A stretch of DNA of 52,792 nucleotides from positions 1-52,792 of IMG/VR virus record IMGVR_UViG_3300031659_000012; one strand, written 5' to 3'. Shown here piece by piece: positions 15,996-30,093 of the stretch (positions within the stretch are counted from its first letter, which is position 1; every line of letters starts with the position of its first letter). Made by a program: the position numbers and the translations under genes. The stretch comes from a virus. Its lineage: Duplodnaviria; Caudoviricetes. A model generated the notes under the pieces. It was not told the DNA's origin. It saw nothing but the letters and a program-made list of their open reading frames with translations, and did not search any database.

Positions 15996-16024
15996 ACTGT
16001 AGTACCGAGCAATAGGCTAGTCAA
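15996..16024 (-). promoter_or_regulatory. Sigma70-like promoter for the SSB/primase operon
   Basis: Minus strand TTGACT-17 bp-TACAGT just upstream of 15966. Confidence 0.55.
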
Positions 16025-17552: not shown

Positions 17553-17563
17553 ACCGTTCTCCT

Positions 17564-17581
17564 TTCGGGCACCTGCCCGAA
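17564..17581. repeat. 18-bp palindrome copy 1 (TTCGGGCA-CC-TGCCCGAA)
   Basis: Immediately upstream of the helicase RBS. Confidence 0.9.
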
Positions 17582-17836
17582 TTATTTTTTCTTTTTGTAG
17601 TTACGAGCGCGGTTCTTGCTTGAACTTTCTATGGTCACGCCATCTTTGTTAGTACCACCTTTGGACAAGGCTTTCTTGTGACTAACATCTTTGCCTTCAC
17701 GCTTGTCGGCCTTACCATTGCCATTGCGATCTGCACCTTCTTTATCAACCTTGCGGCGGGCACGCTGACGTTCCATACGTGCCTCAAACGTCTTACTACC
17801 TACAGGGGCGTTGACTTGCTTCTTACGTTTTCTCAT
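17582..17836 (-). CDS. Small basic HNH-like endonuclease
   Basis: DVSHKKALSKGGTN...KNRARN HNH-like pattern. The start at 17836 is coupled to the upstream stop. Confidence 0.6.
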   Translation of the reverse strand: MRKRKKQVNAPVGSKTFEARMERQRARRKVDKEGADRNGNGKADKREGKDVSHKKALSKGGTNKDGVTIESSSKNRARNYKKKK

Positions 17837-18504
17837 CAGTTTGCTCCATTGTGAACACATTCAATTACAGGGCAGTGGCGTCTGCATAACCCGTTAGGTC
17901 GTGCGTTCCACATGTCATCGTCTGCGGCAGCTTTCATTTGCGCGTACTTGCCCAACCATTTTTCCCACAGCTTGCCCTTATCATACTCCATGTATGTGTC
18001 TTTTACCAAGTCATTACATACAACGAATAGTAGCCCTGCACGTACAGTTTTGATCTGGGGGTACTTGGCAAACAACCCCAAGGCCATCAACTCTAACTGA
18101 CCCTTGTCTGCGTACTTGGCAGATTTACCTGTCTTGTAGTCCACCACCCACGCAAGATCATCGTCGAGTATTACTAGGTCAGCGATACCACGGAACCAAA
18201 CGTCCTTGGCATAGAAGTCACAGACTTCTAGGTTCTCTGTTACACCCAGCTTTATCTCGCATAGCTTTTTGCCCTTGCGGTTCTTCAGTGATACCAGTGC
18301 CTCTTCCGCAAAGCTAAACTTCTTAGGCACAGGTACGTCTGCACCTACAAAGTCTTCTGCCATCTTGTGGAACGCAGAGCCATACAAGATAGCCTCAGTC
18401 TGTTTAAACGGAAACTCTTTGAGTATCTTCTCATGGTAGAACTGCTTAGGACATTGCTCAAATGCTTTGATCCTGCTGAAAGACCACGGCGATACTTTAG
18501 TCAT
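17836..18504 (-). CDS. PD-(D/E)XK exonuclease (RecB/Cas4-like)
   Basis: WSFS..F.QCP, G..FH, GIADL, VVDYKTG, QL, C-terminal C..CP..C Fe-S motif. Confidence 0.88.
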   Translation of the reverse strand: MTKVSPWSFSRIKAFEQCPKQFYHEKILKEFPFKQTEAILYGSAFHKMAEDFVGADVPVPKKFSFAEEALVSLKNRKGKKLCEIKLGVTENLEVCDFYAKDVWFRGIADLVILDDDLAWVVDYKTGKSAKYADKGQLELMALGLFAKYPQIKTVRAGLLFVVCNDLVKDTYMEYDKGKLWEKWLGKYAQMKAAADDDMWNARPNGLCRRHCPVIECVHNGAN

Positions 18505-18868
18505 CAACAGAACTTTCTGAGTTAAACACATCACGCGTAAGGCGTTTCATACGTTTTGTTCTAAAGAACCCTACGTACTGTTGGTGCCGTACCATGTATA
18601 ACCGCGCAAACAATGCAATGAAGTTATTAGAAATTTTATACTCGTTGCCTCTAGTTACTACGCTAGTCTCCCAACGCACTCTGTTGGTTATCAACCAACC
18701 GCTTAAATTCTTATGTCCTCGGCTTATTGCATCTGCGGTAAACCGTTCAAACAGGGTAAAAAAGTCGGGGTTCTTTTTGTGCCAGCGCAACCAATCACGC
18801 CCTAAAGCGCTCTCGCGCATAACTTCGTAAAACTCTGCTTCAGTACAGGTGATTTCTATCGTACTCAT
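18497..18868 (-). CDS. Hypothetical protein
   Basis: 123 aa, overlaps both neighbours in an operon-like way. Confidence 0.7.
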   Translation of the reverse strand: MSTIEITCTEAEFYEVMRESALGRDWLRWHKKNPDFFTLFERFTADAISRGHKNLSGWLITNRVRWETSVVTRGNEYKISNNFIALFARLYMVRHQQYVGFFRTKRMKRLTRDVFNSESSVDD

Positions 18869-20694
18869 TCACATTCTCCATATGATTTGCCTGTGCCACT
18901 TTCACAGGTTATAGGTAATCCTTCGGCCCAATCGGGCGTCTGGCTCATGCACTCTTCCATGTACGCTTGTGCTTCATCTAGTTCTTCGTCACGTACACAG
19001 GTAATTATTGAATCATGTACAGTTAGCACAGCCTTGTACTTCTTAGCAAGGAGTATCATTTGGTGCCCTATGATACAACGTGCAACAGCTTGGCACACGT
19101 TCTCGACAACTTTACCGCCGTATATTCTGTTTGGTCCTTTGCGAGTTCGGTAGGTGTACTCATAGCCACGTTCGGATTTCTCTGCGGCTAGGCCATGATA
19201 GAACATGGGTAGACCAGAAGGTAACATGATAGCGTTCTTCCGTGCGTCTACTTGCAAGACACCTTCCTTACCAAACTGTACGCTATCGCCACGAGCCATA
19301 TACTGCACCATGTTGTTAGCGTCACGCCATAACTGGCTGATAGCTCCGTTGGTACTGCGGTAGATGTCAATGATACGCCGCGCTTCTTCAAGCTCTATGT
19401 ATACACCCATACCTTGCAACTGTACTTGGAACTTGACCGCACCCATGCCGTAACCGGCACCGAGGATTGTAGTCTTGCCCACGAACCTTTGGTCCTTGCT
19501 CACCCCATCTACTGGCACGTTATATATACTGGACGCCATGTGCTTATACACATCGTCACCCTTGGCGAAGGCGCTAGTCAGATCATCTTGCCCTGCTAGC
19601 CATGCCAACACACGCGCTTCGATCTGCGAACTGTCACAGTCAATCAGAGAATACCCTTCGGGAGCCACAATGCTACGCTTTAATTTCTTACCGTTCGGCC
19701 CACGGCTTGGTAGGTTTTGCAGATTGATCTTATCGTCCCCGCCCCACCGTCCAGTGTGTGCTGCATAATATCTTACAGGTACGGGTAGAAGGCCACGAGC
19801 AGAGATGTCTATGAACCTTTGCGTCCGTGTTTCTTCCAAGGTACTTTTAGTACCCAAACGTGCAGCTACTAGAGATTGTACCTTATCGTTCTCATGTGTG
19901 AGCAACGCCTTGAAACCCTCGTCTGATTTGGCAAACGCGAACGTCTCCTTGTCTGTCGTCGGGCTAATCTTCATAGGCGGATCAACATTAAACCCCTTCA
20001 GCAATTCAGCGAACTTAGGGTTAGACATAAGCTCTTTCTTATCCGTCACCCCTGCATCTACTAACAGCTTACTCTTACGCTCTTTAATGTCGTCGAGGTG
20101 CGAGGCTAATAGGTCGGCATCCAACTCTAATGAGGGTTCAGTGTACATACGCAAGGTGAGGTCGATCAACTGTAGCTCCGACTTAGGAAACTTACGTGCC
20201 ATAATACTAAACAACTTATAGGTTAGGATCACGTCATTGATGCAGTAGTCCCCGTACGCTGCTAGTGCTTCGGGTCCAAAATCTCCACGCAGCAGACCCT
20301 GCGCAGCCAATACTTCTGTCCCTTTAACGCCTATGTCATACCTTTCAGATAACGCCCCGAGACTTGCGCTAGCTTCAGTCCCATGTAGCGCACGGGCAAT
20401 GCACAGAGTATCGGTATACATGCGAGGACGAATATCAAAACGCCAATTAAGAATGGCACCATCAAACATAGTATTATGACAAAGTAACATAGCTTTGCCC
20501 CAGTCGAAGGTCTTGAGGTACTTTTTAATCTGTTCATGCGTTCCACTAGCCCACTCCGTCTCCCTGTTGTTTACTCTTACAGCCACGCCGATCACCTCAA
20601 AACGAGGATCACGGACGTAGGCTTCTGTTGTCATCTTACGCAGAGAATAATCTTTGTCGTAAAATGTTTCAAAGTCTAAGGTTATGAGGTCCAT
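18865..20694 (-). CDS. polA: Family A DNA polymerase with 3'-5' exonuclease
   Basis: LDFET and HNTMFD exo motifs; NLQNLP; motif A DSSQIEAR; motif B RFVGKTTILGAGYG; motif C TVHDS. Confidence 0.95.
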   Translation of the reverse strand: MDLITLDFETFYDKDYSLRKMTTEAYVRDPRFEVIGVAVRVNNRETEWASGTHEQIKKYLKTFDWGKAMLLCHNTMFDGAILNWRFDIRPRMYTDTLCIARALHGTEASASLGALSERYDIGVKGTEVLAAQGLLRGDFGPEALAAYGDYCINDVILTYKLFSIMARKFPKSELQLIDLTLRMYTEPSLELDADLLASHLDDIKERKSKLLVDAGVTDKKELMSNPKFAELLKGFNVDPPMKISPTTDKETFAFAKSDEGFKALLTHENDKVQSLVAARLGTKSTLEETRTQRFIDISARGLLPVPVRYYAAHTGRWGGDDKINLQNLPSRGPNGKKLKRSIVAPEGYSLIDCDSSQIEARVLAWLAGQDDLTSAFAKGDDVYKHMASSIYNVPVDGVSKDQRFVGKTTILGAGYGMGAVKFQVQLQGMGVYIELEEARRIIDIYRSTNGAISQLWRDANNMVQYMARGDSVQFGKEGVLQVDARKNAIMLPSGLPMFYHGLAAEKSERGYEYTYRTRKGPNRIYGGKVVENVCQAVARCIIGHQMILLAKKYKAVLTVHDSIITCVRDEELDEAQAYMEECMSQTPDWAEGLPITCESGTGKSYGECE

Positions 20695-21155
20695 TACGCG
20701 CTCACAAGCTCACCGCCACAGGCTAAATAACCCGCACCGTCAATGAAGTTATCCATATGGCGTGGGTTGGATTTGATACGCGCTACCTTTAGCAAGGTCA
20801 TCATCACTGCTACATCGTGGGCGTCGATGCGTTGGTCTAGGTGGACCGACCAGTAATCTGCAATGCGTTGAAAGTTGTCTTCCATGTCACCGTGGTCAGC
20901 CGCTCGGTCCTTAGTCACATACTGCTTGGCTGTGTCTAACACGTCACCGCGTGAGTATGAACGTGGCTCGGACCCGGCACGTATGTCTTCTACCGCAACA
21001 GAGCTTAATATTCTGGATGGCGTACCGATCTTTTGGAACAGTTTGTACACGTACCCGTAGGATGTTTTGGTGGCCTTCGCAACTTCGCTTACCGAGGCTA
21101 GTGGGTGGTCAACTTTGTATGCCCAGATTTTTACTGCTTTGCTTTTCTTAATCAT
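20694..21155 (-). CDS. DUF6378-like protein with N-terminal HTH-like segment
   Basis: R..DHGD...NF.RIA..WS...DVA.MM.LLK.AR...DN.ID.AGY pattern. Confidence 0.75.
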   Translation of the reverse strand: MIKKSKAVKIWAYKVDHPLASVSEVAKATKTSYGYVYKLFQKIGTPSRILSSVAVEDIRAGSEPRSYSRGDVLDTAKQYVTKDRAADHGDMEDNFQRIADYWSVHLDQRIDAHDVAVMMTLLKVARIKSNPRHMDNFIDGAGYLACGGELVSA

Positions 21156-21474
21156 GTCGTTCTCCCTTTATACTTATACGTACGTCGTTAGTGGCGTCGG
21201 CAAACAGTGTCACCACGTCCCCGACCTTTGCGCGTTTAGCAATCCCCTTGATTGAAAGCAGTTCATCGCCGCGTGGACGTCGGTATATACGCAACTCTGT
21301 TTTTGTACCGTCATCAAAGATAGCTTCACTATAGGTTGCCTTTTGTCCGTTGTTTAACTCGTCGTAACTTACAGGCAGGTGTTCTTTAACGAACGCAAGC
21401 ACAGATTTGTTTGCATCTATGATACTTTTGGTGAGCATCCGTTGAGTTAGTTTTATAATTGCCACAGTAGCCAT
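21148..21474 (-). CDS. Hypothetical protein
   Basis: 108 aa, AAGGAGAACGAC leader. Confidence 0.7.
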   Translation of the reverse strand: MATVAIIKLTQRMLTKSIIDANKSVLAFVKEHLPVSYDELNNGQKATYSEAIFDDGTKTELRIYRRPRGDELLSIKGIAKRAKVGDVVTLFADATNDVRISIKGERHD

Positions 21475-21488
21475 GTCGTTCTCCTTGG

Positions 21489-21743
21489 TTACTTTTTAAA
21501 TCGTTTCTTAGTCCGTTGCGCTACGTACTGGAAAAGCCCAACCCGTGTTGCCTTGTTTTTGAATAGCCGCTTTTGCACGAGGTTTACCAAACCCGCGTTT
21601 GCCGCTGCGAGGGCATCGTTCTTAAACAGCCCCCCTGCGTATATCCCAACATGATAAGTTATAGTGTCACCATGTTTGGTTGTATTTAAAGCGTCAGTGA
21701 ATGCACTTTTGTTCTTTGCGTCCAAAAGGTCTAACTCGATCAT
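21489..21743 (-). CDS. Hypothetical protein
   Basis: 84 aa, AGGAGAGG RBS. Confidence 0.7.
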   Translation of the reverse strand: MIELDLLDAKNKSAFTDALNTTKHGDTITYHVGIYAGGLFKNDALAAANAGLVNLVQKRLFKNKATRVGLFQYVAQRTKKRFKK

Positions 21744-21923
21744 ATTTATTGCCTCTCCTGTTTTGTTAGGTGCCCCACCCTACAAGGCAGGGGCTAACCG
21801 TCTCGTGGTTTCTCCGATATGGTCACAATGTTTTACGCTGAACGCGATAGGAGACTTTGCCCATACTGTTGCGGATATTTTCACTATGAATTGGCCTCTC
21901 ACAACTTAGCCTTAGTGTTGCTA

Positions 21924-22220
21924 TTATTTGGATACAGACCAGCGTGATAGAACTCTTGTAACAGAGTCCATATTTTCTTCATTCACTATTAGGTCAAGCC
22001 CACCTGCATGGTTGATTTCTTTTAAGTTCTTCTCTTGCAGGGGTGTGGCTGTGTTCTTGCCAGCTTTGCACTCGAACCCAAAGAAGAACCCTTTGTAACA
22101 CCCTACTATGTCAGGCACACCGCTTTTGCCGTAGCCGCCGGTGGCTGGGTAGAAATAATACGCGCCTAATTCTTTTAGTTGTTTGACAACAACCTTCTTA
22201 ACTTTTGCTTCGGGGGTCAT
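21924..22220 (-). CDS. VRR-NUC domain nuclease (Holliday junction resolvase-like)
   Basis: E..VK...GVPDI...ECKA...TPLQ motifs. Start chosen after the GGAG RBS. Confidence 0.88.
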   Translation of the reverse strand: MTPEAKVKKVVVKQLKELGAYYFYPATGGYGKSGVPDIVGCYKGFFFGFECKAGKNTATPLQEKNLKEINHAGGLDLIVNEENMDSVTRVLSRWSVSK

Positions 22221-22273
22221 AGTAATCTCCATTGATACCAGTAGTGGGGGTGGCGCTAACCACCCCGTTGAGT

Positions 22274-22291
22274 TTCGGGCACCTGCCCGAA
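22274..22291. repeat. 18-bp palindrome copy 2
   Basis: TTCGGGCACCTGCCCGAA, next to a GGGGTGG/CCACCCC hairpin upstream of VRR-NUC. Confidence 0.9.
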
Positions 22292-22292
22292 T

Positions 22293-22544
22293 TTAGGGGT
22301 ACACCCAATATAGATAAGGACTTAGCTTACTGCCCACACCTTCCACATCGCTTAGTGGTGGTGGGACATCCAGCATAGACAGCACAGCCAGCTTATATTG
22401 TATCCATAAAGGTAGCTCGTCCACAGAAGCATAAGTACCGTCAACACTCCTGTCAAGCGGATACATACCAAAACATTCCACGGAGACAGTTTTAGTTTTG
22501 TTTGATAGGATTATTCGGTATGTACTATCGTCCGATACACTCAC
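22293..22544 (-). CDS. Hypothetical protein, paralogous to the C-terminus of the upstream gene
   Basis: 83 aa; ELP..I..KLAVLSM...VEGVG motif. Confidence 0.7.
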   Translation of the reverse strand: MSVSDDSTYRIILSNKTKTVSVECFGMYPLDRSVDGTYASVDELPLWIQYKLAVLSMLDVPPPLSDVEGVGSKLSPYLYWVYP

Positions 22545-23461
22545 GTTGTAACATCTTCTACATAGAGGTAGAACATATTCTCACTTACCTTGTACCCAAC
22601 GTCTTCTACGAAATCTCCATCCTCACACATAGACATGACTGCGATATGACCCATAAGTTCTTCGGGTAGTTCTTTGGCAAGCCACGTCCGGTTGTGGTCT
22701 CTGTCTACCTCGAACCTGTAACTTGATATGTCCTTTACCCGCACAGTGTCCACACGCTGTTCGCCGTAGCTCATGGTATACGCACGTACGAAGTCCATAG
22801 GCACAGCATCGGCAGCGGCAAACCGTGAGAAGACCTTCTTCTTGGCAAGCATGTCTTGGATGGCCGTGCTCAACTCAGGGTTTGAGAAGACATGCCCACT
22901 TAACATCAGGTAACCTAGCTCACGTTCGAGCGCGTTACTACATAAGCCCCTACTTCCGGTTTGATAATCCAAGGTGGAGACTAGGCCAACATCTTCTTTA
23001 GCTTTCCGATACTCCATCCTTGCCGTGGTGCTTACATCTCTGACCGCCACCTTCGCTGGGTTATACAACGCTTGCGCAGTCTCGGATGTAGAGTAGTTAA
23101 TTAAGTACGCCTTAGCATGTTTCAGGGCCACGTCCATCTTCAGGGCCACACGCATGAAGTGCTGCTCGTTCATGTCGTTGTACTTCATGTTGCGGATACC
23201 TCGTGCATACACGGCGTACTTTTTAGACGCTGCTGCTCGGCTGGTCTGGAAGTCACCGTAGCCTATGTAACCCATAGCCATGTCTTCGCCTTCCATGTAG
23301 ACCCACGCACTGTTGAGGGTTCTGGGGGTTGTCTTGACGCCGCGCATAGACTTCGTAACCGCAAGGCAGAACTCTGTTAGCTCCTGTGGTATCGCCCGTG
23401 CGTTGAGCAAGCTCTCTTGATGGATCGCGATACTAGATATTCTTTGATGATTGTAACTCAT
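22541..23461 (-). CDS. Hypothetical early protein
   Basis: About 306 aa. Start placed after the palindrome and GGAG leader. Confidence 0.75.
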   Translation of the reverse strand: MSYNHQRISSIAIHQESLLNARAIPQELTEFCLAVTKSMRGVKTTPRTLNSAWVYMEGEDMAMGYIGYGDFQTSRAAASKKYAVYARGIRNMKYNDMNEQHFMRVALKMDVALKHAKAYLINYSTSETAQALYNPAKVAVRDVSTTARMEYRKAKEDVGLVSTLDYQTGSRGLCSNALERELGYLMLSGHVFSNPELSTAIQDMLAKKKVFSRFAAADAVPMDFVRAYTMSYGEQRVDTVRVKDISSYRFEVDRDHNRTWLAKELPEELMGHIAVMSMCEDGDFVEDVGYKVSENMFYLYVEDVTT

Positions 23462-23478
23462 AGTATTCTCCATTTGTA

Positions 23479-23496
23479 TTCGGGCAGGTGCCCGAA
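23479..23496. repeat. 18-bp palindrome copy 3
   Basis: TTCGGGCAGGTGCCCGAA fused to the leader TACAAATGGAGAATACTATG on the minus strand. Confidence 0.9.
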
Positions 23497-23501
23497 AGTT
23501 G

Positions 23502-23804
23502 TTATAGGTTATATCGTTTCTTGTAACTTGATACACCTTGGGCGCTGATGCCCATCTCTTCGGCTACCTCGAACGTGCGGAAACCTTGACCTAGCAACTC
23601 CTTAACCCGTTTTGCTTGTGGGGTTAGCTTCGTCGGATCATTAGGTGGGCGTCCCCCACTTGCCCCATACGCACCCAAGTTTTGGTCTCTTTTTCGACGG
23701 GCATGTGCTTCCGCATATGCTGAACTATTACCCCACTGCCGCCTTGCTTGCCGGTTCTCTGCCTCGGCCAACTTCTTCATTCGTTCCAAAGGGGTTAACA
23801 TCAT
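23502..23804 (-). CDS. Small protein with C-terminal HTH (sigma region 4/LuxR-like)
   Basis: LTPQ...LL.QGF...EVAEEMGISAQGVS.YK. Confidence 0.7.
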   Translation of the reverse strand: MMLTPLERMKKLAEAENRQARRQWGNSSAYAEAHARRKRDQNLGAYGASGGRPPNDPTKLTPQAKRVKELLGQGFRTFEVAEEMGISAQGVSSYKKRYNL

Positions 23805-23959
23805 TTGTCGTCCCCTTCCCCACGCGCCAACGACTTCATAAGTTCGTCACCTTTGGGCGGTACTGCACCGAAAATTTTGTAGAACACACCGTCGAGTATC
23901 TGCTCAATATCGGTATCTCTTTCTTGCAGACCCACGACATAATTACCTATCTTACTCAC
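23801..23959 (-). CDS. Small hypothetical protein
   Basis: GTG start after GGGAG, 52 aa, fills the operon gap. Confidence 0.5.
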   Translation of the reverse strand: MSKIGNYVVGLQERDTDIEQILDGVFYKIFGAVPPKGDELMKSLARGEGDDK

Positions 23960-23960
23960 C

Positions 23961-25163
23961 TTACATCTCCCTTGATTTAATATGTACAGTTGTGCCCACG
24001 TCGGGCTTTTTGCGGGCGTTGTCCAAGATGCACCACAACACAGGCGTATTCCATGTGCCCCATCCGCGATACAAGTCACCATCTGTTAGGACGATACACG
24101 CTTGCGGTTTGATGCCATGCTCTTGCATATACTCAGGCACACACTCGACATCCGTACCGCCGCCACCTGCTGGCTTGGTTGACTTCACTAGATCATCTAG
24201 CTCGTGCATCTCATACGCTTCGTCACGACAGACCTTTGTGTCCCAGTACAACACGCGCACCTTGTTAGGTTTTACCGTGTCACACACAGACTTGACCTCA
24301 GACAAGAACGCAGACAACGCCACGTTACCGATAGAACCAGACATGTCGATAGCCACAACCAACTCATCGACCTGCTGACTGATACCAGATGGCATGTAGA
24401 TATTCGCACCTATGTACCGTCTGTTAGGACGTTTCCACGTAGAGTAGTCAGACCCTGCGCACGTAGTATGTATAAACTCGCGCAGTGTTTCACGCCAATC
24501 TATCTGTGGTTGCATGAGTTCTTCAAGGTTGCGATCACCACCGCTACCCATCTTACCCGCGATCAATGCGCCTTGGCGTACAGCCTCGTCGATCTCACGC
24601 GCTAGTTCGCGTATCTCGTCGGCGTCCATATCGGTTGCACCTTCCCAGTCGTGACTGTCGAACCCTTGTGGCCCAGCAGTTCCGCCGCCACCTCCATCCT
24701 CACCCTGTGGCTTGTTATCGTGTAAGTCCCCGAACACCTGCGCAGTGTCCCAGCCACGATACTTCTCGTCATAGCAACCACCTTCGGGTAACTTGATCCA
24801 CCCATCTGCACCGTATTCGTCCATGAGCTTGATGTTGATAACGTAGTCCATAGCCATGTTGGCAAGATGTGGGGCTATCTTGGATAGGTGTGCCCACGTT
24901 GTCAGGTGGCGGTATAGTTTGTGATAGTTCTCGTGCAGTACAAGAAACCGTAGCTCTGCATCGTTAAGACTATCCACAAACTCTGCACCGTACCACTCGT
25001 CACGCCCGTTGGTACAGGCTGTTGGCACCTTGGCATTGTCATGCTCAACGACACGATCACCGATCATCAGCACTGCTGACAACGCAGGAATCTTAGACAT
25101 AAGAGCGACGATTGTTTTGGGCACCCGCTGCTCTGGAGTAAGTTGTTTACCGATAGATAACAT
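23961..25163 (-). CDS. DUF2201-like metallopeptidase + VWA domain protein
   Basis: TACTNG, LHENYH (HExxH), N.A.D..IN, MIDAS DMSGS, GGGGTD, VLTDG. Confidence 0.88.
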   Translation of the reverse strand: MLSIGKQLTPEQRVPKTIVALMSKIPALSAVLMIGDRVVEHDNAKVPTACTNGRDEWYGAEFVDSLNDAELRFLVLHENYHKLYRHLTTWAHLSKIAPHLANMAMDYVINIKLMDEYGADGWIKLPEGGCYDEKYRGWDTAQVFGDLHDNKPQGEDGGGGGTAGPQGFDSHDWEGATDMDADEIRELAREIDEAVRQGALIAGKMGSGGDRNLEELMQPQIDWRETLREFIHTTCAGSDYSTWKRPNRRYIGANIYMPSGISQQVDELVVAIDMSGSIGNVALSAFLSEVKSVCDTVKPNKVRVLYWDTKVCRDEAYEMHELDDLVKSTKPAGGGGTDVECVPEYMQEHGIKPQACIVLTDGDLYRGWGTWNTPVLWCILDNARKKPDVGTTVHIKSREM

Positions 25164-25164
25164 A

Positions 25165-25446
25165 TTATTTCCTCCACCACATCATGCTAGTCCACCAACT
25201 TGGTTTTGGTTGTGACCCTTGCACTGTTACAATTTTACTTTCGGGCACCTGCCCGAAATCCATCTCCACCTGCCGTATCTCACGACCACCCACGGGTAGC
25301 TTCAAGACAGTTATGCGGTTAGTCACCGATGAAGATGTGCGCTTCAAAATTATTGCAATCACCTTCGTGGATACGGCAGCCTCGCGCAGTAATACTAACT
25401 CTGCATCATCTGCTTGGGTCCAGCCCTTGTATGTACGTTTTGTCAT
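25165..25446 (-). CDS. Small GcrA/Myb-like HTH protein
   Basis: WTQADDAEL..L......K.IA..LKRT..SV..R pattern; AGGAGAG RBS before the ATG at 25446. Confidence 0.6.
   Translation of the reverse strand: MTKRTYKGWTQADDAELVLLREAAVSTKVIAIILKRTSSSVTNRITVLKLPVGGREIRQVEMDFGQVPESKIVTVQGSQPKPSWWTSMMWWRK
25240..25257. repeat. 18-bp palindrome copy 4 (inside a CDS)
   Basis: TTCGGGCACCTGCCCGAA encoded within FGQVPE. Confidence 0.9.
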
Positions 25447-25456
25447 TTGATCTCTC

Positions 25457-26551
25457 CTACTTTTTATCTGCTGCAAACATGTGGTTGTTATCCATAGCCC
25501 ACTTGGTGAGTTTCTTGTTCTGCATCGCCATAGAACGCTTTGAATACTTGGGGGCACGTACGCCATTGGCAAACATACCTTGTGCTTCGGTGTCGAGACG
25601 TGGCATGTAATCCATCCACGCATCCAGCCAATCCCGCTCCAAAGATGCTAACGTACGGTACACAACCATACATATAGCGGCAGCGCTGTCAGGCACCTTG
25701 GCGGTCTTTGGATCATCTTTGATAGACTGCAACGACGGTAGTTGATCCGACATCTTGACGAACGCCATCAAGTCCATTGCACCACGATCACCGATAGTAC
25801 CTATCAGGGCAGAGGTCAGCGTCTTATCGTTGAACAAGTGCCGTTGGTGTAGGATGTCAGACGCAGAGTGTAGCGAACGTGGGGTAACAAAGGCGGCGCG
25901 TTGCTGCTTGGGGTGGAAGATATACGGGTTCTCGTCGGGGTCTTTGATGTCCTCGAACGATGCGAACAAGTGCGGGTTATCTTTACACCAGCCAAGCAAG
26001 CTATGGTCGATACCAGCATTGATGCCCCATTCGATCCACTCCAAGTTGGTAGACTTGCGTATCTGTACGACGGTCATGCGATTACGTGCGTGAGGTGGTA
26101 GCATGTCACCCACACCTTCTGAACCTTTGTTCGTCGTTGCATACACGATGCTGTCAGGGTGCAATGTGTAGCTACCAATCTTGCGCTCCAAGATCAAACG
26201 TAGCAGAGCCAGCTTGACAGATGGATTAGCCTTGCCGAACTCGTCGATCATAATGATGACAGGCCCGTCCGTGTGCAGACCCAGTTCTTCGTTGGTGACA
26301 TAGCGAACGAACTTGCTGTTCTCGTCAATTTCCATAATCATCGGGATCATAATGTCACCAAGATCAAGGCTCGTGCAGTCTACGTAGAACGTCCTATGTG
26401 TTGGCTTGAGCTTGCCCAACTCACCGAGCGTTGATGATTTACCGTTACCGATGTCACCTTGGAATAGAACAGTACGTTGGTGGCCGATAGCCCCGACAAG
26501 GGTAACACCCTCGTCTAAGCTCAGTGAGTACATTTGTTGTGCAGTATTCAT
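25457..26551 (-). CDS. MoxR-like AAA+ ATPase
   Basis: GDIGNGKS Walker A, IMIDEFGKA Walker B, TTN sensor, TPRS. Confidence 0.88.
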   Translation of the reverse strand: MNTAQQMYSLSLDEGVTLVGAIGHQRTVLFQGDIGNGKSSTLGELGKLKPTHRTFYVDCTSLDLGDIMIPMIMEIDENSKFVRYVTNEELGLHTDGPVIIMIDEFGKANPSVKLALLRLILERKIGSYTLHPDSIVYATTNKGSEGVGDMLPPHARNRMTVVQIRKSTNLEWIEWGINAGIDHSLLGWCKDNPHLFASFEDIKDPDENPYIFHPKQQRAAFVTPRSLHSASDILHQRHLFNDKTLTSALIGTIGDRGAMDLMAFVKMSDQLPSLQSIKDDPKTAKVPDSAAAICMVVYRTLASLERDWLDAWMDYMPRLDTEAQGMFANGVRAPKYSKRSMAMQNKKLTKWAMDNNHMFAADKK

Positions 26552-26566
26552 GGTAGTCTCCTGTTA

Positions 26567-26584
26567 TTCGGGCAGATGCCCGAA
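26567..26584. repeat. 18-bp palindrome copy 5
   Basis: TTCGGGCAGATGCCCGAA directly upstream of the ATPase RBS. Confidence 0.9.
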
Positions 26585-26586
26585 AG

Positions 26587-26694
26587 TTAAATTAACCCTG
26601 TGGCGTAAGCGCCCCAGATAATAAGTAAGGGTATGGCAAAGACTGCCAGCCCCCCGATTAGGTCGTACAAAAATTCTCGGATAGTACCTTTCAT
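26587..26694 (-). CDS. 35-aa single-TM membrane peptide (not in ORF track)
   Basis: MKGTIREFLYDLIGGLAVFAIPLLIIWGAYATGLI; the ATG overlaps the upstream TAA (TAATG). Confidence 0.6.
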   Translation of the reverse strand: MKGTIREFLYDLIGGLAVFAIPLLIIWGAYATGLI

Positions 26695-27602
26695 TACATA
26701 TCCAGACTTGGCAGGGTAGCGATGGCTGCGGTTAGCTTCTCTTGCGTGTCAGCGCGAAGCGTTGGTGAGTTCTTGATTTGGTGCAGGTTTACCGGTTGAT
26801 TATTTTTGGTGAACGCTTCTTCTAGCTTGAGGCGCATTGCTTCCATTTGGCTATCACCTGTCACGTTACACGTACGTAACATGTCGATCAGTGACAAAGC
26901 ACCATCGAACACGGTATCATATAGCCTGTTACCTTTGCCCTCTTCGTTGACGTCAAGCTGTCGGACAAGTGTAGTCAGGTTATCATGTAGCCGCTTCCAA
27001 ACGTCATTCATCGCGCCCTTGATCTGCGCTGCGTACTGCGCGGCATACTGCGTCTGTATTTGCACCATGCCCTCGTTACCGATGTCGATACGAAAGTCAC
27101 CGCTGTCAGGTAGTGGGATGTAAGCCATACGAAATGCAAACTTACTCTCTAGCCCTGCGCGTGTTGGGTACTCGTCACGGTTAAACATGTCACCCAGTTT
27201 GGCCTGCGCTTCCATGATCTTCCACTCGTACACCTGCAAGAACTGCTCGGTCAGCCGGTAAAACTCTTGCTGTAGGTCAGTCATTACCTCGTGGTACTTG
27301 AAGTATTGCGCTGTCGTTAGTAGCCGTGACCCGTTGTCCGACCATGGCATTGTCATGCTGTAGTGCATGTTGCGTACGTTAGCGGCGAACTTCTGTACTG
27401 CGTCCAACTCGGCACAGTTACCCAGTAGGTTCTTAGACACATTGGCAACGCCCTTGTCAGCGTGGTTCGCGTCCGTCACATCCTCGGATGCTTTGCGATC
27501 TTTCTTACGTGCAGTCCAGACGCTTGCGTTGAAGTCAACGATCATAGCCGCTGATGATATGCTAGGCGCGGTGGCCTGCGGGGTTTGAAGTATCTCGTTC
27601 AT
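26694..27602 (-). CDS. DUF3150-like protein
   Basis: W.ARKKD...K.LL...T.PW...G.RL...LG..F...EYP....L..KF motifs. This family is typically found next to AAA/VWA genes. Confidence 0.7.
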   Translation of the reverse strand: MNEILQTPQATAPSISSAAMIVDFNASVWTARKKDRKASEDVTDANHADKGVANVSKNLLGNCAELDAVQKFAANVRNMHYSMTMPWSDNGSRLLTTAQYFKYHEVMTDLQQEFYRLTEQFLQVYEWKIMEAQAKLGDMFNRDEYPTRAGLESKFAFRMAYIPLPDSGDFRIDIGNEGMVQIQTQYAAQYAAQIKGAMNDVWKRLHDNLTTLVRQLDVNEEGKGNRLYDTVFDGALSLIDMLRTCNVTGDSQMEAMRLKLEEAFTKNNQPVNLHQIKNSPTLRADTQEKLTAAIATLPSLDM

Positions 27603-27620
27603 AGTAATCTCCATTTGTTA

Positions 27621-27638
27621 TTCGGGCAGGTGCCCGAA
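27621..27638. repeat. 18-bp palindrome copy 6
   Basis: TTCGGGCAGGTGCCCGAA plus leader TAACAAATGGAGATTACTATG. Confidence 0.9.
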
Positions 27639-27676
27639 AGGTTTGATTTATTTCGGTGAGTCTTCTCACTACCTAT

Positions 27677-27705
27677 AGTGTATCATAGGTAGTAAGTAAT
27701 GTCAA
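27677..27705 (-). promoter_or_regulatory. Strong sigma70-like early promoter
   Basis: Minus strand TTGACA-17 bp-TACACT with TGn extension. Confidence 0.75.
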
Positions 27706-27756
27706 GTAATGGGGTTTGGTGTCCCCTTGTGGTGTAACATGTTTAATCGTGGTCTT

Positions 27757-27957
27757 CTAGTCCCATTCACGTACACATTCGAGCGTAGTCACAAGCTCAT
27801 CGTAGAACGCCCATGCTTTGCAAGTTGGGCACTCGTCAAAGAACTCATCACACCTGTCTCCAACAAACGCGTACACAAGAGAATAGGTAGCGGTCAGCCG
27901 TTGATCCCATACCTTATCCGCGAACGGCAGTTCTTTTAGGTCTTCACTATTCATCAC
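27757..27957 (-). CDS. Small hypothetical protein with CxxC
   Basis: 66 aa, AGGAG RBS. Confidence 0.65.
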   Translation of the reverse strand: MMNSEDLKELPFADKVWDQRLTATYSLVYAFVGDRCDEFFDECPTCKAWAFYDELVTTLECVREWD

Positions 27958-27963
27958 AATCTC

Positions 27964-28158
27964 CTAACGTGTTTTCTGGTTGAGGTGCAGCAAGTCTTCC
28001 TTGCGCGATATTAATGTGTAGCCCTGCTTTGGCAGTGGAGCTATGCACCACCCAAGTCTTTGCTCAGTGGCAGCAACGTCACCGCATTTGAGACAGACCC
28101 GATAGCCTAGCTTGGCGCGACCTACTGGGAACGTGTCCCCACAATCTTTGCACTTCAT
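27964..28158 (-). CDS. DksA/TraR-like C4 zinc-finger protein
   Basis: CKDCGDTFP.GR..LG...CLKC. Confidence 0.65.
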   Translation of the reverse strand: MKCKDCGDTFPVGRAKLGYRVCLKCGDVAATEQRLGWCIAPLPKQGYTLISRKEDLLHLNQKTR

Positions 28159-28379
28159 TAGAATGCCACCTCGTCTTCTATCTTTGACGCAGCCAACATC
28201 CGCAGCATCAAGAACGATGTGTTGTCCGACAAGATAGTCAGGTTTAGCAAATGCACCGAGTTGCGTTCAATCCATGCCTCGGCAGTTACGATGTTAGTTG
28301 CTTCGTGGATTACTTTGTCCGAGTGGCATCGGGTCTTATCGCTCCAAGCGAACCCCTGAACTGTTACTGTCTGCTTCAT
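28158..28379 (-). CDS. Small hypothetical early protein
   Basis: Start after the palindrome and GGAG leader. Confidence 0.65.
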   Translation of the reverse strand: MKQTVTVQGFAWSDKTRCHSDKVIHEATNIVTAEAWIERNSVHLLNLTILSDNTSFLMLRMLAASKIEDEVAF

Positions 28380-28397
28380 AGTAGTCTCCATTTGTTA

Positions 28398-28415
28398 TTC
28401 GGGCATCTGCCCGAA
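28398..28415. repeat. 18-bp palindrome copy 7
   Basis: TTCGGGCATCTGCCCGAA plus leader TAACAAATGGAGACTACTATG. Confidence 0.9.
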
Positions 28416-28477
28416 AGTGCTGTTAGTGTAGGGTTACGTAGTGATTCATTAAACTACGTCTTTACCGTCCATATAAC

Positions 28478-28506
28478 ATACTACCACATAGAGCGTGCGA
28501 TGTCAA
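28478..28506 (-). promoter_or_regulatory. Strong sigma70-like early promoter
   Basis: Minus strand TTGACA-17 bp-TAGTAT with TGn extension. Confidence 0.75.
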
Positions 28507-28554
28507 GTTTTGGGGTGCGGTGGTGTCGCGTGGTGTCTGGTGGTAAGTCCTGTC

Positions 28555-28790
28555 AAGTTCCAACGTGTGTGTCTGTATGCTGCTGATTTAAAAAGAAAGT
28601 TCCAAAGTTCCAAAGTTCCAAGGGTATATGTCAGGATTTGTGAAAGGGTTTTTAGCGAGAAAGTACCCTCTTACTCTCTCTAACAATATATTTATATATA
28701 TACTTATAATCTTGGAACTTTGGAACTTTCTTCTACTTTCAATGCTTTACGAGCCGTTTGCTTGGAACTTCTTTGGAACTTCTGGAACTT
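28555..28790. repeat. Inverted iteron clusters around an AT-rich core (candidate replication origin)
   Basis: AAGTTCCAA at 28555, 28597, 28605, 28613; (T)TGGAACTT at 28712, 28720, 28762, 28773, 28783; AT-rich run at 28681-28710. Confidence 0.75.
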
Positions 28791-28812
28791 TCTTTTACTT
28801 TCAGATACTTAG

Positions 28813-29086
28813 ATGCGTAGAGCTACTCTACTTACTGGTATCGGAAGTTTCGGGCAGTTGCCCGAAGTACAATCTAGTGACATCCTATGGGCTAACCCGT
28901 TTGGAACACGCGCAAACGTGTCATGCGTAGAGCTACTCTACTTACTGGTATCAGAACTTTCGGGCAGGTGCCCGAATAAAAAAAGACCCGCCGAAGCGAG
29001 CCTAGTAGAGCATTGTGGTGCAATGTATTGCCTAGATATCATAGGCGTTGCGTATACGCAACAAAACTTTCGGGCAGGTGCCCGAA
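28813..29086. repeat. Array with 110-bp period: palindrome copies 8-10, the first two in a 54-bp direct repeat
   Basis: Palindromes at 28849, 28959 and 29069. 28813-28866 and 28923-28976 differ at only 3 positions. Confidence 0.88.
28978..29003 (-). terminator. Rho-independent terminator (cUUCGg loop)
   Basis: Minus strand AGGCTCGC-TTCG-GCGGGTCT-TTTTTT. Confidence 0.75.
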
Positions 29087-29095
29087 AAAAGACAC

Positions 29096-29125
29096 AAAAA
29101 AAGGGGCCACCCGAAGGCAGCCCCT
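29096..29125 (-). terminator. Rho-independent terminator (cUUCGg loop) after the first early gene
   Basis: Minus strand AGGGGCTGCC-TTCG-GGTGGCCCCT-TTTTTT. Confidence 0.85.
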
Positions 29126-29141
29126 GTAGAATGTTATGTGG

Positions 29142-29720
29142 TTAGCAGAATGTTTTGACGAAACCCTTGAGAACCGCGATCGCATCGTCGTGCGCGAACG
29201 TGTCAGGGAATGGCTTGTCACCTTGCAACAATTTGGTGGCCTTTTCCATTAACGCGGCGAGGTCTTCAATGGCCGTCTTAGGCTCATTCGCGCCACCCGA
29301 TACGTATTCCTCAGGACATGCCAGCTTATGAGCCGTGATTAAGCCACGTCGCACAGTCTTGAGAAATTCGGTGCGGCGATCCTGCAACACCTTGCGCGAG
29401 GCCTTTTGCTCGGCTGGTGCATCCTTTGGCAATTTGGTGGCCAATTCTGCCCGCTCGGCTTTGGTATAACATACCATGCCAGCCGCTTCCACGCGAGCCG
29501 CGTATTGCTCGACAGACGCTGTGCTGTCCTTATTCTTAGCGGAAAGGTAATCGCTTGGCAGGATGCCCGCAGCAACTAGGTAGGCATACGTATGGGCTAG
29601 TTTGCCCTCGGCCTTGCGGACAATGTCCATTGCGCCCACCTCAACAATGTCGATACCTTCGACGTTAAACTTTATGCCAATGGTTGCTAGTGTCTCGGTC
29701 ATCTTTGAAATAGTTGTCAT
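29142..29720 (-). CDS. First gene of the early arm, hypothetical
   Basis: 192 aa from the ATG after AAGGAG; followed by its own terminator. Confidence 0.75.
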   Translation of the reverse strand: MTTISKMTETLATIGIKFNVEGIDIVEVGAMDIVRKAEGKLAHTYAYLVAAGILPSDYLSAKNKDSTASVEQYAARVEAAGMVCYTKAERAELATKLPKDAPAEQKASRKVLQDRRTEFLKTVRRGLITAHKLACPEEYVSGGANEPKTAIEDLAALMEKATKLLQGDKPFPDTFAHDDAIAVLKGFVKTFC

Positions 29721-29832
29721 AGTGAAGTCTCCTTGTCTGAGATTGATCGTGCGCCAATCCCTTCTGACAACCAATCAATACCGCGCCATAACGTGTTATA
29801 CAATGGGTCTGCATACTAAATGATATTAAACC

Positions 29833-29872
29833 AAACTAAACGCCGTTGAAACTAAAACGCCGTCGAAACTAA
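29833..29872. repeat. Short imperfect tandem repeat (~16-17 bp x2.4)
   Basis: aaactaaacgccgttg / aaactaaaacgccgtcg / aaactaa. Confidence 0.7.
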
Positions 29873-29881
29873 CTGACTACA

Positions 29882-29899
29882 TTCGGGCACCTGCCCGAA
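29882..29899. repeat. 18-bp palindrome copy 11
   Basis: TTCGGGCACCTGCCCGAA in the divergent intergenic region. Confidence 0.9.
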
Positions 29900-30033
29900 A
29901 CACGTTTTACAGAAGGGTACCCCGTCCCCACCCCCCGCGCTGTCATATAGGATTCCGCCGTAGTACTATTATTACTAATCCAGACGAATAAATTGGTATT
30001 TTTTGAAAACCCCCCGCCCCTCTTTAGAAACCC

Positions 30034-30062
30034 TTGCTAAAATTTTTTTTGTAACCTAGTAT
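30034..30062 (+). promoter_or_regulatory. Sigma70-like promoter for the packaging/structural arm
   Basis: TTGCTA-17 bp-TAGTAT upstream of 30094. Confidence 0.55.
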
Positions 30063-30093
30063 TACGTTACCGGTTAACTACCTGCGAAATGAT

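Follow-up and report, generated by a model that had tools for sequence, protein, structure and literature searches.

A lineage-specific palindrome repeated along the early arm of an uncultured marine phage, and its possible reading as double-stranded DNA by a phage protein

The repetition of one palindrome at eleven places in the replication arm of a phage genome raises the question of what reads it, in which form (DNA or RNA), and to what effect. The window analysed here, i.e., the whole stretch of DNA under study, is the entire virus record (52,792 b, linear, CheckV completeness 85) of an uncultured phage of marine origin. An exact scan for TTCGGGCANNTGCCCGAA returned 11 matches, against 0.00 expected from 100 dinucleotide-preserving shuffles, and a scan allowing up to three mismatches returned the same 11 (0.09 expected) and no degenerate copies. 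All of them are confined to the minus-strand early/replication arm, and the plus-strand structural genes (about 40 kb) carry none, even with three mismatches. The central dinucleotides, in copy order, are CC, CC, GG, CC, GA, GG, TC, GT, GG, GG, and CC, and the copy-to-copy distances (4710, 1205, 1761, 1327, 1054, 777, 451, 110, 110, and then 813 b) fall toward the divergence point. Ten of the 11 copies are intergenic, the exception (25240) lying within an optional small ORF. A previous sequence-only reading had described the same positions and centres, invariant arms, absence from the structural arms, and rise in density, all of which were confirmed; since the window is the whole virus record, the full-genome scan that it proposed is identical to the window scan. 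The copies, to which no strand is assigned, and their neighbouring signals are as follows.

17564 to 17581, no strand: copy 1, centre CC on the plus strand; with the minus strand as coding strand, it follows the TAA of ORF 17582-17860 and precedes the AGGAGA-N5-ATG of the SNF2 helicase gene
22274 to 22291, no strand: copy 2, one base past the stop of an 83-aa ORF (22293-22544), followed by a G+C hairpin and ACTGGTATC, and then by a Hjc/RecU-like endonuclease gene
23479 to 23496, no strand: copy 3, followed on the coding strand by TACAAATGGAGAATACTATG, the start of a 305-aa ORF
25240 to 25257, no strand: copy 4, inside the 3' part of the optional small HTH ORF 25165-25461; in relatives without this ORF, between the MoxR stop and the SD of the VWA gene
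26567 to 26584, no strand: copy 5, followed by TAACAGGAGACTACCATG, the start of the MoxR AAA gene
27621 to 27638, no strand: copy 6, followed by TAACAAATGGAGATTACTATG (DUF3150 gene)
27677 to 27705, minus strand: strong sigma70-like promoter (TTGACA-17-TACACT with TG) upstream of copy 6
28398 to 28415, no strand: copy 7, followed by TAACAAATGGAGACTACTATG
28478 to 28506, minus strand: strong sigma70-like promoter (TTGACA-17-TAGTAT with TG) upstream of copy 7
28823 to 28842, minus strand: GATACCAGTA-N4-GAGTAG element, 6 nt 3' of copy 8
28849 to 28866, no strand: copy 8, the first of three at a 110-b period, facing the putative origin
28933 to 28952, minus strand: second GATACCAGTA-N4-GAGTAG element, 6 nt after copy 9
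28959 to 28976, no strand: copy 9, abutting the T-run of a terminator-like hairpin
28984 to 29003, minus strand: terminator-like hairpin and T-run immediately 5' of copy 9
29069 to 29086, no strand: copy 10, abutting the T-rich tail of a terminator-like hairpin after the first early gene
29102 to 29125, minus strand: terminator-like hairpin and T-run immediately 5' of copy 10
29882 to 29899, no strand: copy 11, in the divergent control region beside 17-b direct repeats, about 160 nt ahead of where the first early gene starts

In relatives, the palindrome or an allelic counterpart is conserved at orthologous gaps, where TTCGGGCA-NN, TTAGGGA-NN, TTAGGGAA-N, and GTTAGTG-NNN are found. In the gap before the SNF2 gene, for instance, 60 distinct relatives carry type A (the allele of the window) in 29 cases, B in nine, b3 in four, C in two, D in 10, another form in one, and none in five. 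Three relatives (95-100% complete) have 10-11 copies each, all in one 13-15 kb arm, and two complete B-type genomes have 10 (all in one 14-kb arm) and eight (between 0.9 and 8.3 kb, with one at 60.6 kb, in a record of 65.1 kb). The site allele is particular to each lineage, and all copies within a genome match, save for three of 184 relatives' loci (two contigs) where two types are mixed, many loci being typed from a single site. The sequence-only reading had noted no compensatory changes, which holds within one genome; across relatives both arms change together. Such covariation had been expected to point to RNA, but it fits an RNA stem and a dimer operator alike, because the latter would also co-vary symmetrically.

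The allele swaps are precise and occur in backgrounds 91-99% identical. L130 and L131 differ at two positions in about 460 nt outside the palindrome, and between L142 and L101 three sites are swapped in a 2,227-nt stretch of 91.4% identity. Consequently, something must read the sequence, beyond its mere fold. Patch-like swaps within near-identical flanks could also be produced by recombination, with the palindromes as crossover points of gene cassettes, or as targets or footprints of a site-specific nuclease followed by repair to the resident allele. Optional small genes adjoin the sites, a Hjc/RecU-like nuclease gene is present, centres at one site flip between complementary forms, and BLAST alignments end within 40 nt of a site in 22 of 202 bins (9.4 expected). 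Nevertheless, the main breakpoints lie elsewhere (18.4-18.9, 20.6-20.9, and 21.7-22.6 kb), no recombinase or transposase was found among the window ORFs scanned, and second-order selection would not hold 11 copies invariant, so that the cassette sites suggested in the earlier reading gain little support and this origin is very unlikely.

The placement of the copies hints at mRNA. Among 238 distinct contexts, an SD and start codon (within 34 nt) stand just 3' of the site in 113, and in 91 the site is flanked by a stop codon (within 8 nt) and by an SD and start (within 34 nt); several copies lie between cistrons only 0-8 nt ahead of the SD, and some type D copies fall within the first 10 codons. 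Moreover, D-type relatives have the same gap bare (TAAGGAGA..ATG), and elsewhere the palindrome occupies exactly that gap. Copy 6 is located 38 nt, and copy 7 62 nt, past the -10 of its promoter, both of them in 5' leaders. These observations fit an mRNA hairpin, i.e., a 7-bp stem and tetraloop 5' of the ribosome-binding site, which a sequence-specific RNA-binding protein or endoribonuclease would use to process or stabilise each cistron or to control its translation. The RNA is predicted to fold into a 7-bp stem-loop leaving SD and AUG free, and the stem (7-9 bp) and loop (3-4 nt) are constant across alleles, unlike the half-site spacing: the outer hexamers are conserved, with a gap of 3, 4, 5, or 6 bp between them, and b3 lacks the inner pair. 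Such variation is easier to accommodate in a stem-loop than in a rigid dimer.

On the other hand, the centre follows a rule that is symmetric under reverse complement in types A, B, and C, which is meaningless for a loop read on one strand. The type A centre is GN or NC in every one of the 11 copies of the window and, among the distinct copies of relatives, in 177 of 182 (chance level, 7/16 dinucleotides), the type B centre is AN or NT in 25 of 26, and type C has C or G in nine of nine; the centre is thus not free, contrary to the sequence-only reading. On the coding strand, GN (99), NC (134), and GC (20) centres show little bias. Furthermore, in copies with one arm mismatch (all types pooled, n = 31), coding-strand G.U pairs (7) are not above A.C (9), with 15 others. 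Since copies 9 and 10 abut T-runs and copy 11 precedes the first gene, upstream transcripts ending at those terminators would exclude them. There is also no Rfam family match. The preference for a protein on DNA over an RNA hairpin, previously argued from a free centre and the lack of co-variation, had grounds that were partly wrong, but it is favoured by the present tests (reverse-complement symmetry, absence of a strand bias and of a G.U signature, and copies placed after terminators or ahead of the first gene). The site thus appears to be read as double-stranded DNA by a phage protein rather than as a plain RNA hairpin, and the hairpin reading is unlikely, although it deserves consideration. 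In addition, a GAT(A/G)CCAGT motif is preserved beside palindromes of every allele; of 238 distinct type-A contexts, 45 have it no more than 20 nt downstream (at 4-6 nt in the examples inspected).

Which protein would read the site on DNA? The four HTH proteins previously considered do not track the allele: the HTH_17 protein (15323) has an unchanged DNA-binding part across types A, B, b3, and C; genes 23502 and 25165 are optional, each occurring in four sequences among the 184 relatives' loci and the window; and the DUF6378 protein encoded at 20694 is 85% identical between one A genome and one B genome. Two other products do co-vary with the allele.

29145 to 29720, minus strand: first early gene (192 aa, all-alpha, no known fold), candidate trans factor
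4427 to 11443, plus strand: giant polyvalent virion protein (2338 aa, HExxH metallopeptidase motif, LPD39 domain), candidate trans factor

The first early gene product, which the sequence-only reading had named (as 29142-29720) only among its proposed checks, occurs as an A-type family in 40 type-A loci and one mixed locus, and as a B/C family in 37 B/C loci; a D1st-like first gene is also present in eight B/C loci. Within type A, only five of its positions are at least 90% conserved (21 sequences), despite the invariant site. The C-terminal ~1,450 aa of the giant protein exist in deeply divergent forms: 16 of 17 type-A contigs (19 of 20 loci) have the A form, and all 10 type-B contigs (12 of 12 loci) have the B form. 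One A-type site occurs in a genome with a B-form giant protein which, together with the mixed-type contigs, indicates that single mismatched sites are tolerated. Genes between the two candidates reach 79-94% identity between A and B, and one A genome (G006), which aligns to a B genome (G011) over 65% at 84% identity, is less close to the remaining A genomes. Among the genes retained by the three other A genomes, the first early gene, the giant gene, and a short antisense ORF in the origin region are the sole ones that are absent from, or under 32% identical in, each of the two B genomes. No recognisable DNA-binding fold was found in either candidate, and their co-variation with the allele could partly reflect population structure; on this co-variation, the binder may be the first early gene product or the giant protein C-terminus.

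If the giant protein is the reader, it could act at entry, being injected and binding own-allele palindromes on incoming DNA before phage expression, in order to protect, pace, or mark self. Polyvalent proteins have been proposed to enter the cell alongside DNA (PMC5512222), and the giant protein, large, polyvalent, and with an HExxH motif and LPD39, belongs to this class; its C-terminus tracks the allele across non-tracking genes, and site density climbs toward the divergent region adjoining the terminase genes. However, the placement at stop codons and SD sequences is left unexplained, no DNA-binding domain was detected in the protein, and the association could be population structure, so that we regard this role as improbable.

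Coliphage N4 has hairpin early promoters read by a virion RNA polymerase, with a stem-loop size similar to that of this palindrome, few in number, and at the genome end. Short stem-loops in an early region and a giant virion protein tracking the allele are therefore reminiscent of N4, and N4-like RNA polymerases are themselves described as polyvalent proteins fused to zincin peptidases (PMC5512222). In the present phage, however, no RNA polymerase signal was detected in the giant protein (Pfam, PHROGs, and PDB sequence search; fold search of aa 1140-2338), the arm is served by strong host-type promoters, the 10-11 sites extend over 12 kb, their centre has no orientation relative to genes, and several lie between cistrons just ahead of an SD. 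Hairpin promoters, as also raised previously, are consequently most unlikely.

A host origin, with the site copying a host REP sequence or the operator of a host regulator, would suit a palindromic, intergenic element whose allele is tracked by genes (first early, giant) of kinds expected to adapt to the host. Nonetheless, a scan of 185,579 species genomes gave at least 120 stretches, and each of the 80 that were listed has just one site, the taxa being unrelated, which matches the chance prediction and lends no weight to the host match considered earlier. Viral loci with two or more sites all belong to this phage lineage (A 58/58, B 29/29, and C 7/7), and, outside the arm, genes common to one A-type and one B-type genome are 71-99% identical. 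We consider a host element scarcely credible.

The closest published analogue is the 17-bp palindrome of cluster O mycobacteriophages (5'-TGTTCGGNNNCCGAACA; 34 copies in Corndog), whose function is likewise without assignment and whose suggested binder is a dimeric protein (PMC4351075). Both have invariant inverted arms, a short variable centre without meaningful orientation, a predominant location in short intergenic gaps or close to the 5' ends of genes in one transcription arm, and no copies in the host; tens of copies occur per cluster O genome, and indels flanked by copies count as a further likeness. That element, in another phage group and another host, is 7-3-7 rather than 8-2-8, its copies are genome-wide with 11 in coding regions, and the section describing it reports neither an allelic series at orthologous sites nor a co-varying gene.

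Cluster A stoperators are described as 20-30 near-identical sites per genome, mostly away from promoters, with a consensus varying by subcluster together with the cognate repressor, and at which the bound protein stops elongation (PMC6550527, PMC9283540). They resemble the present palindromes in their many spread, near-identical sites and lineage-dependent consensus, but are 13-bp, asymmetric, in one orientation to transcription, and bound by the monomeric immunity repressor of temperate phages, whereas here the dyad has no orientation, no repressor or integrase was identified, and alleles are swapped in near-identical backgrounds. Similarly, cluster K SAS/ESAS repeats stand immediately upstream of many start codons, with ESAS being inverted repeats of subcluster-dependent consensus; a factor of host or phage origin, either RNA or protein, has been proposed for the repeats (PMC3203893). 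Start-codon-proximal placement and lineage-specific inverted repeats are shared; yet ESAS are imperfect 17-bp repeats with a 4-13 bp spacer, in one orientation and tied to the 13-bp SAS that includes the ribosome-binding site. The IncP plasmid RK2 carries 12 copies of a 13-bp palindrome, TTTAGCSGCTAAA, bound by the ParB-family global repressor KorB. A dozen identical palindromes in a mobile genome, promoter-near and promoter-far, served by one dimeric protein, are a comparable arrangement, and the outer TTTAG...CTAAA and central G/C resemble types B and C, as a lead only; among those window ORFs that were scanned with Pfam, none gave a ParB/KorB-like protein.

In brief, we propose, with a probability of about one in two, that the palindrome acts in cis and is recognised as double-stranded DNA by a phage-encoded, allele-specific protein, the candidates being the product of the first early gene and the C-terminal 1,450 aa of the putatively injected giant protein. 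The 10-11 copies occupy small gaps, some from a stop codon to the next SD, some in leaders 30-60 nt past a host-type promoter, and others just after terminators, next to the putative origin, or in the divergent control region; this spread would allow one factor to act on the whole arm at once, most likely by blocking or timing transcription, like cluster A stoperators or KorB operators. As to what sets the allele, genes at the left end of G006 (e.g., 1296-2408 and 2405-2692) have counterparts at 71-81% identity in the B genomes and are not shared by the remaining A genomes; should tail genes be among them, it would not be the host that determines the allele.

The palindrome TTCGGGCANNTGCCCGAA was found as 11 exact matches in the window (0.00 expected in shuffles), and a scan allowing up to three mismatches added no copy to these; hence, the copies are perfect and none lies in the plus-strand structural arms. 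In this respect, exact and mismatch scans of the whole record agree with the sequence-only reading, which had placed 11 copies between 17564 and 29899, in the early arm alone. The record, of which the window covers all 52,792 b, is linear, with an estimated completeness of 85%, and megablast recovered no cultured-phage relative among 50,697 records; for the family A DNA polymerase (PolA), the best identity to a cultured phage was 36% (Rhizobium phage RHph_TM3_14A).

Genes and sequence elements of the window
11.7 to 29.8 kb, minus strand: genes of the early/replication arm, with DUF927 primase-helicase, Enc34-like ssDNA-binding protein, HTH_17 protein, SNF2 helicase, PD-(D/E)XK nuclease, family A DNA polymerase, DUF6378, Hjc/RecU-like nuclease, VWA/DUF2201 protein, MoxR-like AAA protein, DUF3150 and Zn-ribbon protein
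Plus-strand arms: terminase, capsid, SU10-type adaptor, tail genes and the 2,338-aa virion protein
28555-28790: putative origin, nine copies of the 8-mer AAGTTCCA around an A+T-rich stretch
28823-28842 and 28933-28952, minus strand: GATACCAGTA-N4-GAGTAG, with an inverted copy at 22234-22242
29145-29720: first early gene, encoding a 192-aa, all-alpha protein

On the coding strand, the palindromes occupy gaps between the genes of the arm. An SD and start codon follow five copies by 0-8 nt (e.g., site-TAACAAATGGAGAnTACTATG), and the stop codon of the preceding gene stands directly before several. Copies 6 and 7 are located 38 and 62 nt downstream of the -10 element of strong TTGACA-17-TAnnnT promoters, within 5' leaders, leaving the promoters themselves uncovered; overall, a strong sigma70-like promoter was present at most 160 nt upstream of 2/11 sites, and overlapped 0/11. 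T-runs of terminator-like hairpins adjoin copies 9 and 10, copies 8 and 9 sit 6 nt upstream of GATACCAGTA-N4-GAGTAG and face the putative origin, and copy 11 belongs to the divergent control region that precedes the first early gene. Copy 4 falls within an optional small ORF, and in relatives lacking this ORF its equivalent is placed between the MoxR stop codon and the VWA SD. Among 238 distinct type-A contexts of relatives (type A being the window's own allele), an SD and start codon were found within 34 nt in 113, GAT(A/G)CCAGT within 20 nt in 45, and neither in 80, part of which are mis-oriented by the strand rule. A conserved trio, MoxR-like AAA, VWA/DUF2201 metallopeptidase-like and DUF3150 (23961-27614), carries a palindrome before each gene.

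At least 116 IMG/VR stretches contain the exact type-A motif, and a PolA relative is encoded in 596/599 candidate stretches, the best 80 of these relatives being 70-97% identical; judged by sample numbers, the samples of this lineage look marine. When the loci of relatives were searched for repeated palindromes, other alleles were recovered at orthologous gaps.

Multi-copy palindromes of relatives
Type B: (G/T)TTAGGGA-NN-TCCCTAA
Type b3: TTAGGG-NNNN-CCCTAA
Type C: TTAGGGAA-N-TTCCCTAA
Type D: GTTAGTG-NNN-CACTAAC

Types B and C were present in 96 and 35 IMG/VR stretches, respectively. The gap preceding the SNF2 gene carried A in 29 of 60 distinct relatives, B in 9, b3 in 4, C in 2, D in 10, another palindrome in 1 and none in 5. 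Alleles are seldom mixed: among 184 loci, single-type loci numbered 130 for A, 18 for D, 12 for B, 4 for b3 and 3 for C, 14 had none, and A and B co-occurred in 3, from two contigs. Three complete or near-complete type-A genomes harbor 11, 10 and 10 sites, each set confined to 13-15 kb; one type-B genome has 10 sites inside 14 kb, and in a second, with a 65.1-kb record, seven of eight sites fall at 0.9-8.3 kb and the eighth at 60.6 kb. Viral loci bearing at least two sites come without exception from this lineage (A 58/58, B 29/29, C 7/7), and unrelated viral contigs show single matches.

Replacement of the site was observed between otherwise close relatives. Around the SNF2 site, the loci L130 (type B) and L131 (type A) show 2 differences over about 460 nt, the palindrome itself being replaced, and L142 (B) and L101 (A) share 91.4% identity over 2,227 nt with 3/3 contained sites swapped. 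At the MoxR-VWA junction, types A, B and C each have their own palindrome exactly between stop codon and SD, and D-type genomes show a bare TAAGGAGA..ATG. Such a pattern cannot be produced by point mutation, and needs short-patch exchange coupled to selection acting on every site's sequence; therefore, something reads that sequence. In some lineages (L041, L029, L060, L063, L093), decayed type-A copies with one or two mismatches, often at the outermost pair, were noted, and L041 also bears one type-B site; these may be genomes in transition between alleles.

The centre of the palindrome, described as free in the sequence-only reading, turned out to be constrained. It is GN or NC in 11/11 window copies, in 253/262 unique contexts with at most one mismatch, and in 177/182 distinct flank-plus-centre events in relatives (7/16 dinucleotides by chance), and therefore TTCGGGCAG is read on at least one strand. 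Type B follows an analogous rule (AN or NT in 25/26), and the type C centre is C or G in 9/9. Reverse complementation leaves the GN/NC rule unchanged. GN (99) and NC (134) have similar frequency on the coding strand, and complementary centres interchange between close relatives at one orthologous site.

In the putative origin, AAGTTCCA is arranged as four plus-strand copies at 28555-28620 and five minus-strand copies at 28713-28790, with an A+T-rich (TATATT)n stretch at 28687-28708 between the clusters; in the window it occurs 14 times against 1.75 expected. TGTTCC-type iterons lie beside clustered palindromes in 3/5 complete relatives (G007, G011 and G012), and origin iterons were rejected as allele-linked elements because they do not follow the palindrome allele. 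The motif GATACCAGTA-N4-GAGTAG is found 6 nt downstream of two window palindromes and at 4-6 nt in the relatives read, being kept next to types A, C and D, and in inverted form in B; GATACCAGT occurs five times in the window against 0.44 expected. It could represent a binding site or promoter directed towards the origin. Other repeats were noted nearby: a perfect 16-b palindrome, GTTGCGTATACGCAAC (29047-29062), between copies 10 and 9 and upstream of the second terminator-like hairpin; and a 17-b direct repeat, AAACTAAAACGCCGTCG (plus strand, 29833-29872), present in 2.4 copies and adjoining palindrome copy 11, at a position of the divergent region that is occupied in relatives by different short direct repeats. 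The main breakpoint of alignments with relatives is the position after PolA (182 alignment ends at 18.5-18.9 kb). A 123-aa ORF directly following the PolA gene (18497-18868) had 0 homologues in 26 selected loci, and four sequences, including the window, among all 184 loci.

Most likely, a phage-encoded factor that acts on the early/replication arm as a whole has the palindrome as its multi-copy DNA site; to a duplex-DNA reading, taken together with its rival of a site used at genome entry, we assign a probability of about 0.65-0.7. That the site acts instead as an RNA hairpin in the transcript seems unlikely, although two results favour it: the sites adjoin ribosome-binding sites, D-type copies lying even within the first ten codons, and alleles preserve the sizes of stem and loop but vary from 3 to 6 bp in the gap between the conserved outer hexamers. 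The symmetry of the centre rule and the lack of strand bias argue against it, as do copies behind terminators and upstream of the first gene, and a distance to the conserved DNA motif that is short and alike in every allele. Moreover, 31 copies with a mismatch in one arm (alleles pooled) gave G.U on the coding strand in 7, A.C in 9 and other pairs in 15. As RNA, the site folds into a 7-bp stem with a tetraloop, with the SD staying free; on the coding strand, most copies have an A-rich 3' side, with A at +1 in 71%, in place of the U-run that follows the hairpin of an intrinsic terminator, and a simple terminator scan was passed by copy 10 and some antisense readings only. Covariance models of Rfam 15 gave 0 matches at E up to 1 on either strand of 16000-31000.

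Among multi-site systems, the KorB operator network depends on a ParB-family protein encoded by the element itself, and no Pfam match to this family was found in the window ORFs scanned, the record being about 85% complete. The nearest system of known mechanism is that of the cluster A stoperators, which resemble the window's sites in being many, near-identical and located in transcribed regions, mostly away from promoters; however, stoperators are asymmetric and share one orientation to transcription, whereas the site studied here is a dyad devoid of orientation. Stoperators are read by a monomeric repressor, which blocks elongating RNA polymerase when bound and whose sequence goes with the site consensus (PMC6550527). 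No cognate repressor of this type was recognised here, and the two genes that track the allele both lack a known DNA-binding fold. Closest among published descriptions is a 17-bp palindrome in cluster O mycobacteriophages, a descriptive class that comes with no known mechanism: its 34 copies have invariant arms around a variable, unoriented centre, favor intergenic positions in one arm and are not found in the host, and their function is not known (PMC4351075). The window's palindrome fits this description in its invariant inverted arms, short variable centre, many copies, enrichment in short intergenic gaps of one arm and, judged by the bacterial matches listed, absence from the host. Cluster K ESAS inverted repeats precede start codons and differ between subclusters (PMC3203893).

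An N4-type hairpin promoter is strand-specific and sets the direction of transcription, in contrast to the window's centre, which has no orientation to genes. REP elements occur in hundreds of host-chromosome copies, while in the bacterial/archaeal collection all 80 stretches among the matches listed had one site each, in unrelated taxa. These single sites, together with the absence of a Pfam match to the HUH/Y1 transposase (a REP/RAYT feature) in the window ORFs scanned, make a host REP element very improbable. Chi-like single half-sites were rejected as too few, the 8-mer being found four times outside palindromes against 1.4 expected; one of those four, the isolated half-site TTCGGGCA (30110-30117), is in the divergent region, close to where the plus-strand arm begins.

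Candidate readers were sought by comparing A with B/C proteins, restricted to loci in which at least three sites of a single type occur. Nearly every conserved arm protein reached 79-99% identity between some A and some B/C genome, with best values of 99% for MoxR, 97% for the endonuclease, 95% for VWA and 94% for HTH_17. The HTH proteins that the sequence-only reading had proposed as binders did not hold up: the helix-turn-helix region of the HTH_17 protein does not differ between types A, B, b3 and C, both small HTH genes (23502 and 25165) are optional, and the DUF6378 protein has no allele specificity. Also rejected were the Zn-ribbon protein (27964-28158), lacking allele-specific residues, and an 83-aa protein (22293-22544), which is acidic and highly variable within type A, its alignment having no allele-specific positions. 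Among complete or near-complete relatives, the genome nearest to G006 (A), ahead of any other A genome, is G011 (B), with 84% identity over the 65% aligned; G006 also has some genes outside the arm in common with B genomes only. Two genes are kept in the three other A genomes but are either absent from both B genomes or very divergent there, namely the first early gene and that of the giant polyvalent virion protein (4427-11443). A short antisense ORF in the origin region has the same pattern, which probably denotes conserved non-coding DNA. The allele-tracking candidates for the putative binder are the first early protein and the giant C-terminus.

The first early protein is very variable, its versions in 20 relatives being 19-80% identical to that of the window. 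Counted as loci, some of which share one contig, and with the gene adjoining several sites, the window's family was detected in 40 type-A loci and one mixed locus, a B/C family in 37 B/C loci, and a D-like family in 2 D and 8 B/C loci. The confident model of the window protein (pLDDT 87) had no PDB fold match and no family match, and the ESM Atlas returned unnamed viral clusters only, named clusters scoring at most 0.82.

The giant protein (2,338 aa) has an invariant HExxH (H1223, E1224, H1227), an LPD39 domain at about aa 1395-1573, and homologues named PLxRFG domain proteins, and is therefore assigned to the large polyvalent proteins, a class proposed to enter with the injected DNA (PMC5512222). 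Among relatives otherwise close, it exists in two deeply divergent forms, its C-terminal ~1,450 aa sharing 52-61% identity among four A genomes and 26% with two B genomes. In loci that include both its 700 C-terminal residues and one or more typed sites, the A form was detected in 16/17 type-A contigs (64-100% to the A reference, 26-32% to the B reference) and the B form in 10/10 type-B contigs (61-87%); a B-like form at 40-61% accompanied b3 (4), D (7) and two C contigs, and an A-like form one single-site C contig. The sole type-A exception, L047, aligns with L130 at 98.5% over 922 nt, and L080, L131 and L108 align likewise; consequently, the near-identical flanks of L130 and L131 may represent a B-form genome with one A-type patch. 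Since no differentiation between alleles is seen in the genes that separate the sites from the giant gene, simple linkage fails to explain the association. An AlphaFold model of aa 1140-2338 (pLDDT 70), in which these C-terminal 1,199 aa are mostly helical, had no Foldseek match at E up to 0.001, and a PDB sequence search of the protein gave two chance-level matches only (E 0.42 and 0.76). An N4-like RNA polymerase was rejected, with no signal in sequence searches or in the fold of aa 1140-2338.

A further proposal, which we consider quite improbable, is that the giant protein and the palindromes, possibly with the first early protein, constitute an allele-specific self-recognition system. A protein entering with the DNA would read its own palindrome allele on the leading arm, and co-infecting relatives of another allele would go unrecognised. 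If true, the alleles would be incompatibility or immunity types kept distinct by selection, with the rest of the genome recombining freely.

In brief, the palindrome is real, strongly selected, lineage-specific and allelic, and we infer both the function of the system and its binder. Literature searches of main texts, including a full-text search for either 8-mer arm in which none of the 20 papers listed out of 2,113 concerned phages, returned no description of this palindrome, nor reports of discrete allelic swaps at orthologous sites in near-identical genomes, a half-site-plus-one centre rule in two alleles, or co-variation with a polyvalent virion protein. Dispersed invariant palindromes are known in a few phage groups, none with a function found, and this case makes the problem testable through a very large natural series of sites, swapped discrete alleles and two co-varying genes. 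If the binder is confirmed, this would show how a single factor controls or marks an entire replication arm across a widespread uncultured phage lineage, and LPD39-bearing polyvalent virion proteins, for which searches found no function, could gain a first link to a DNA target.
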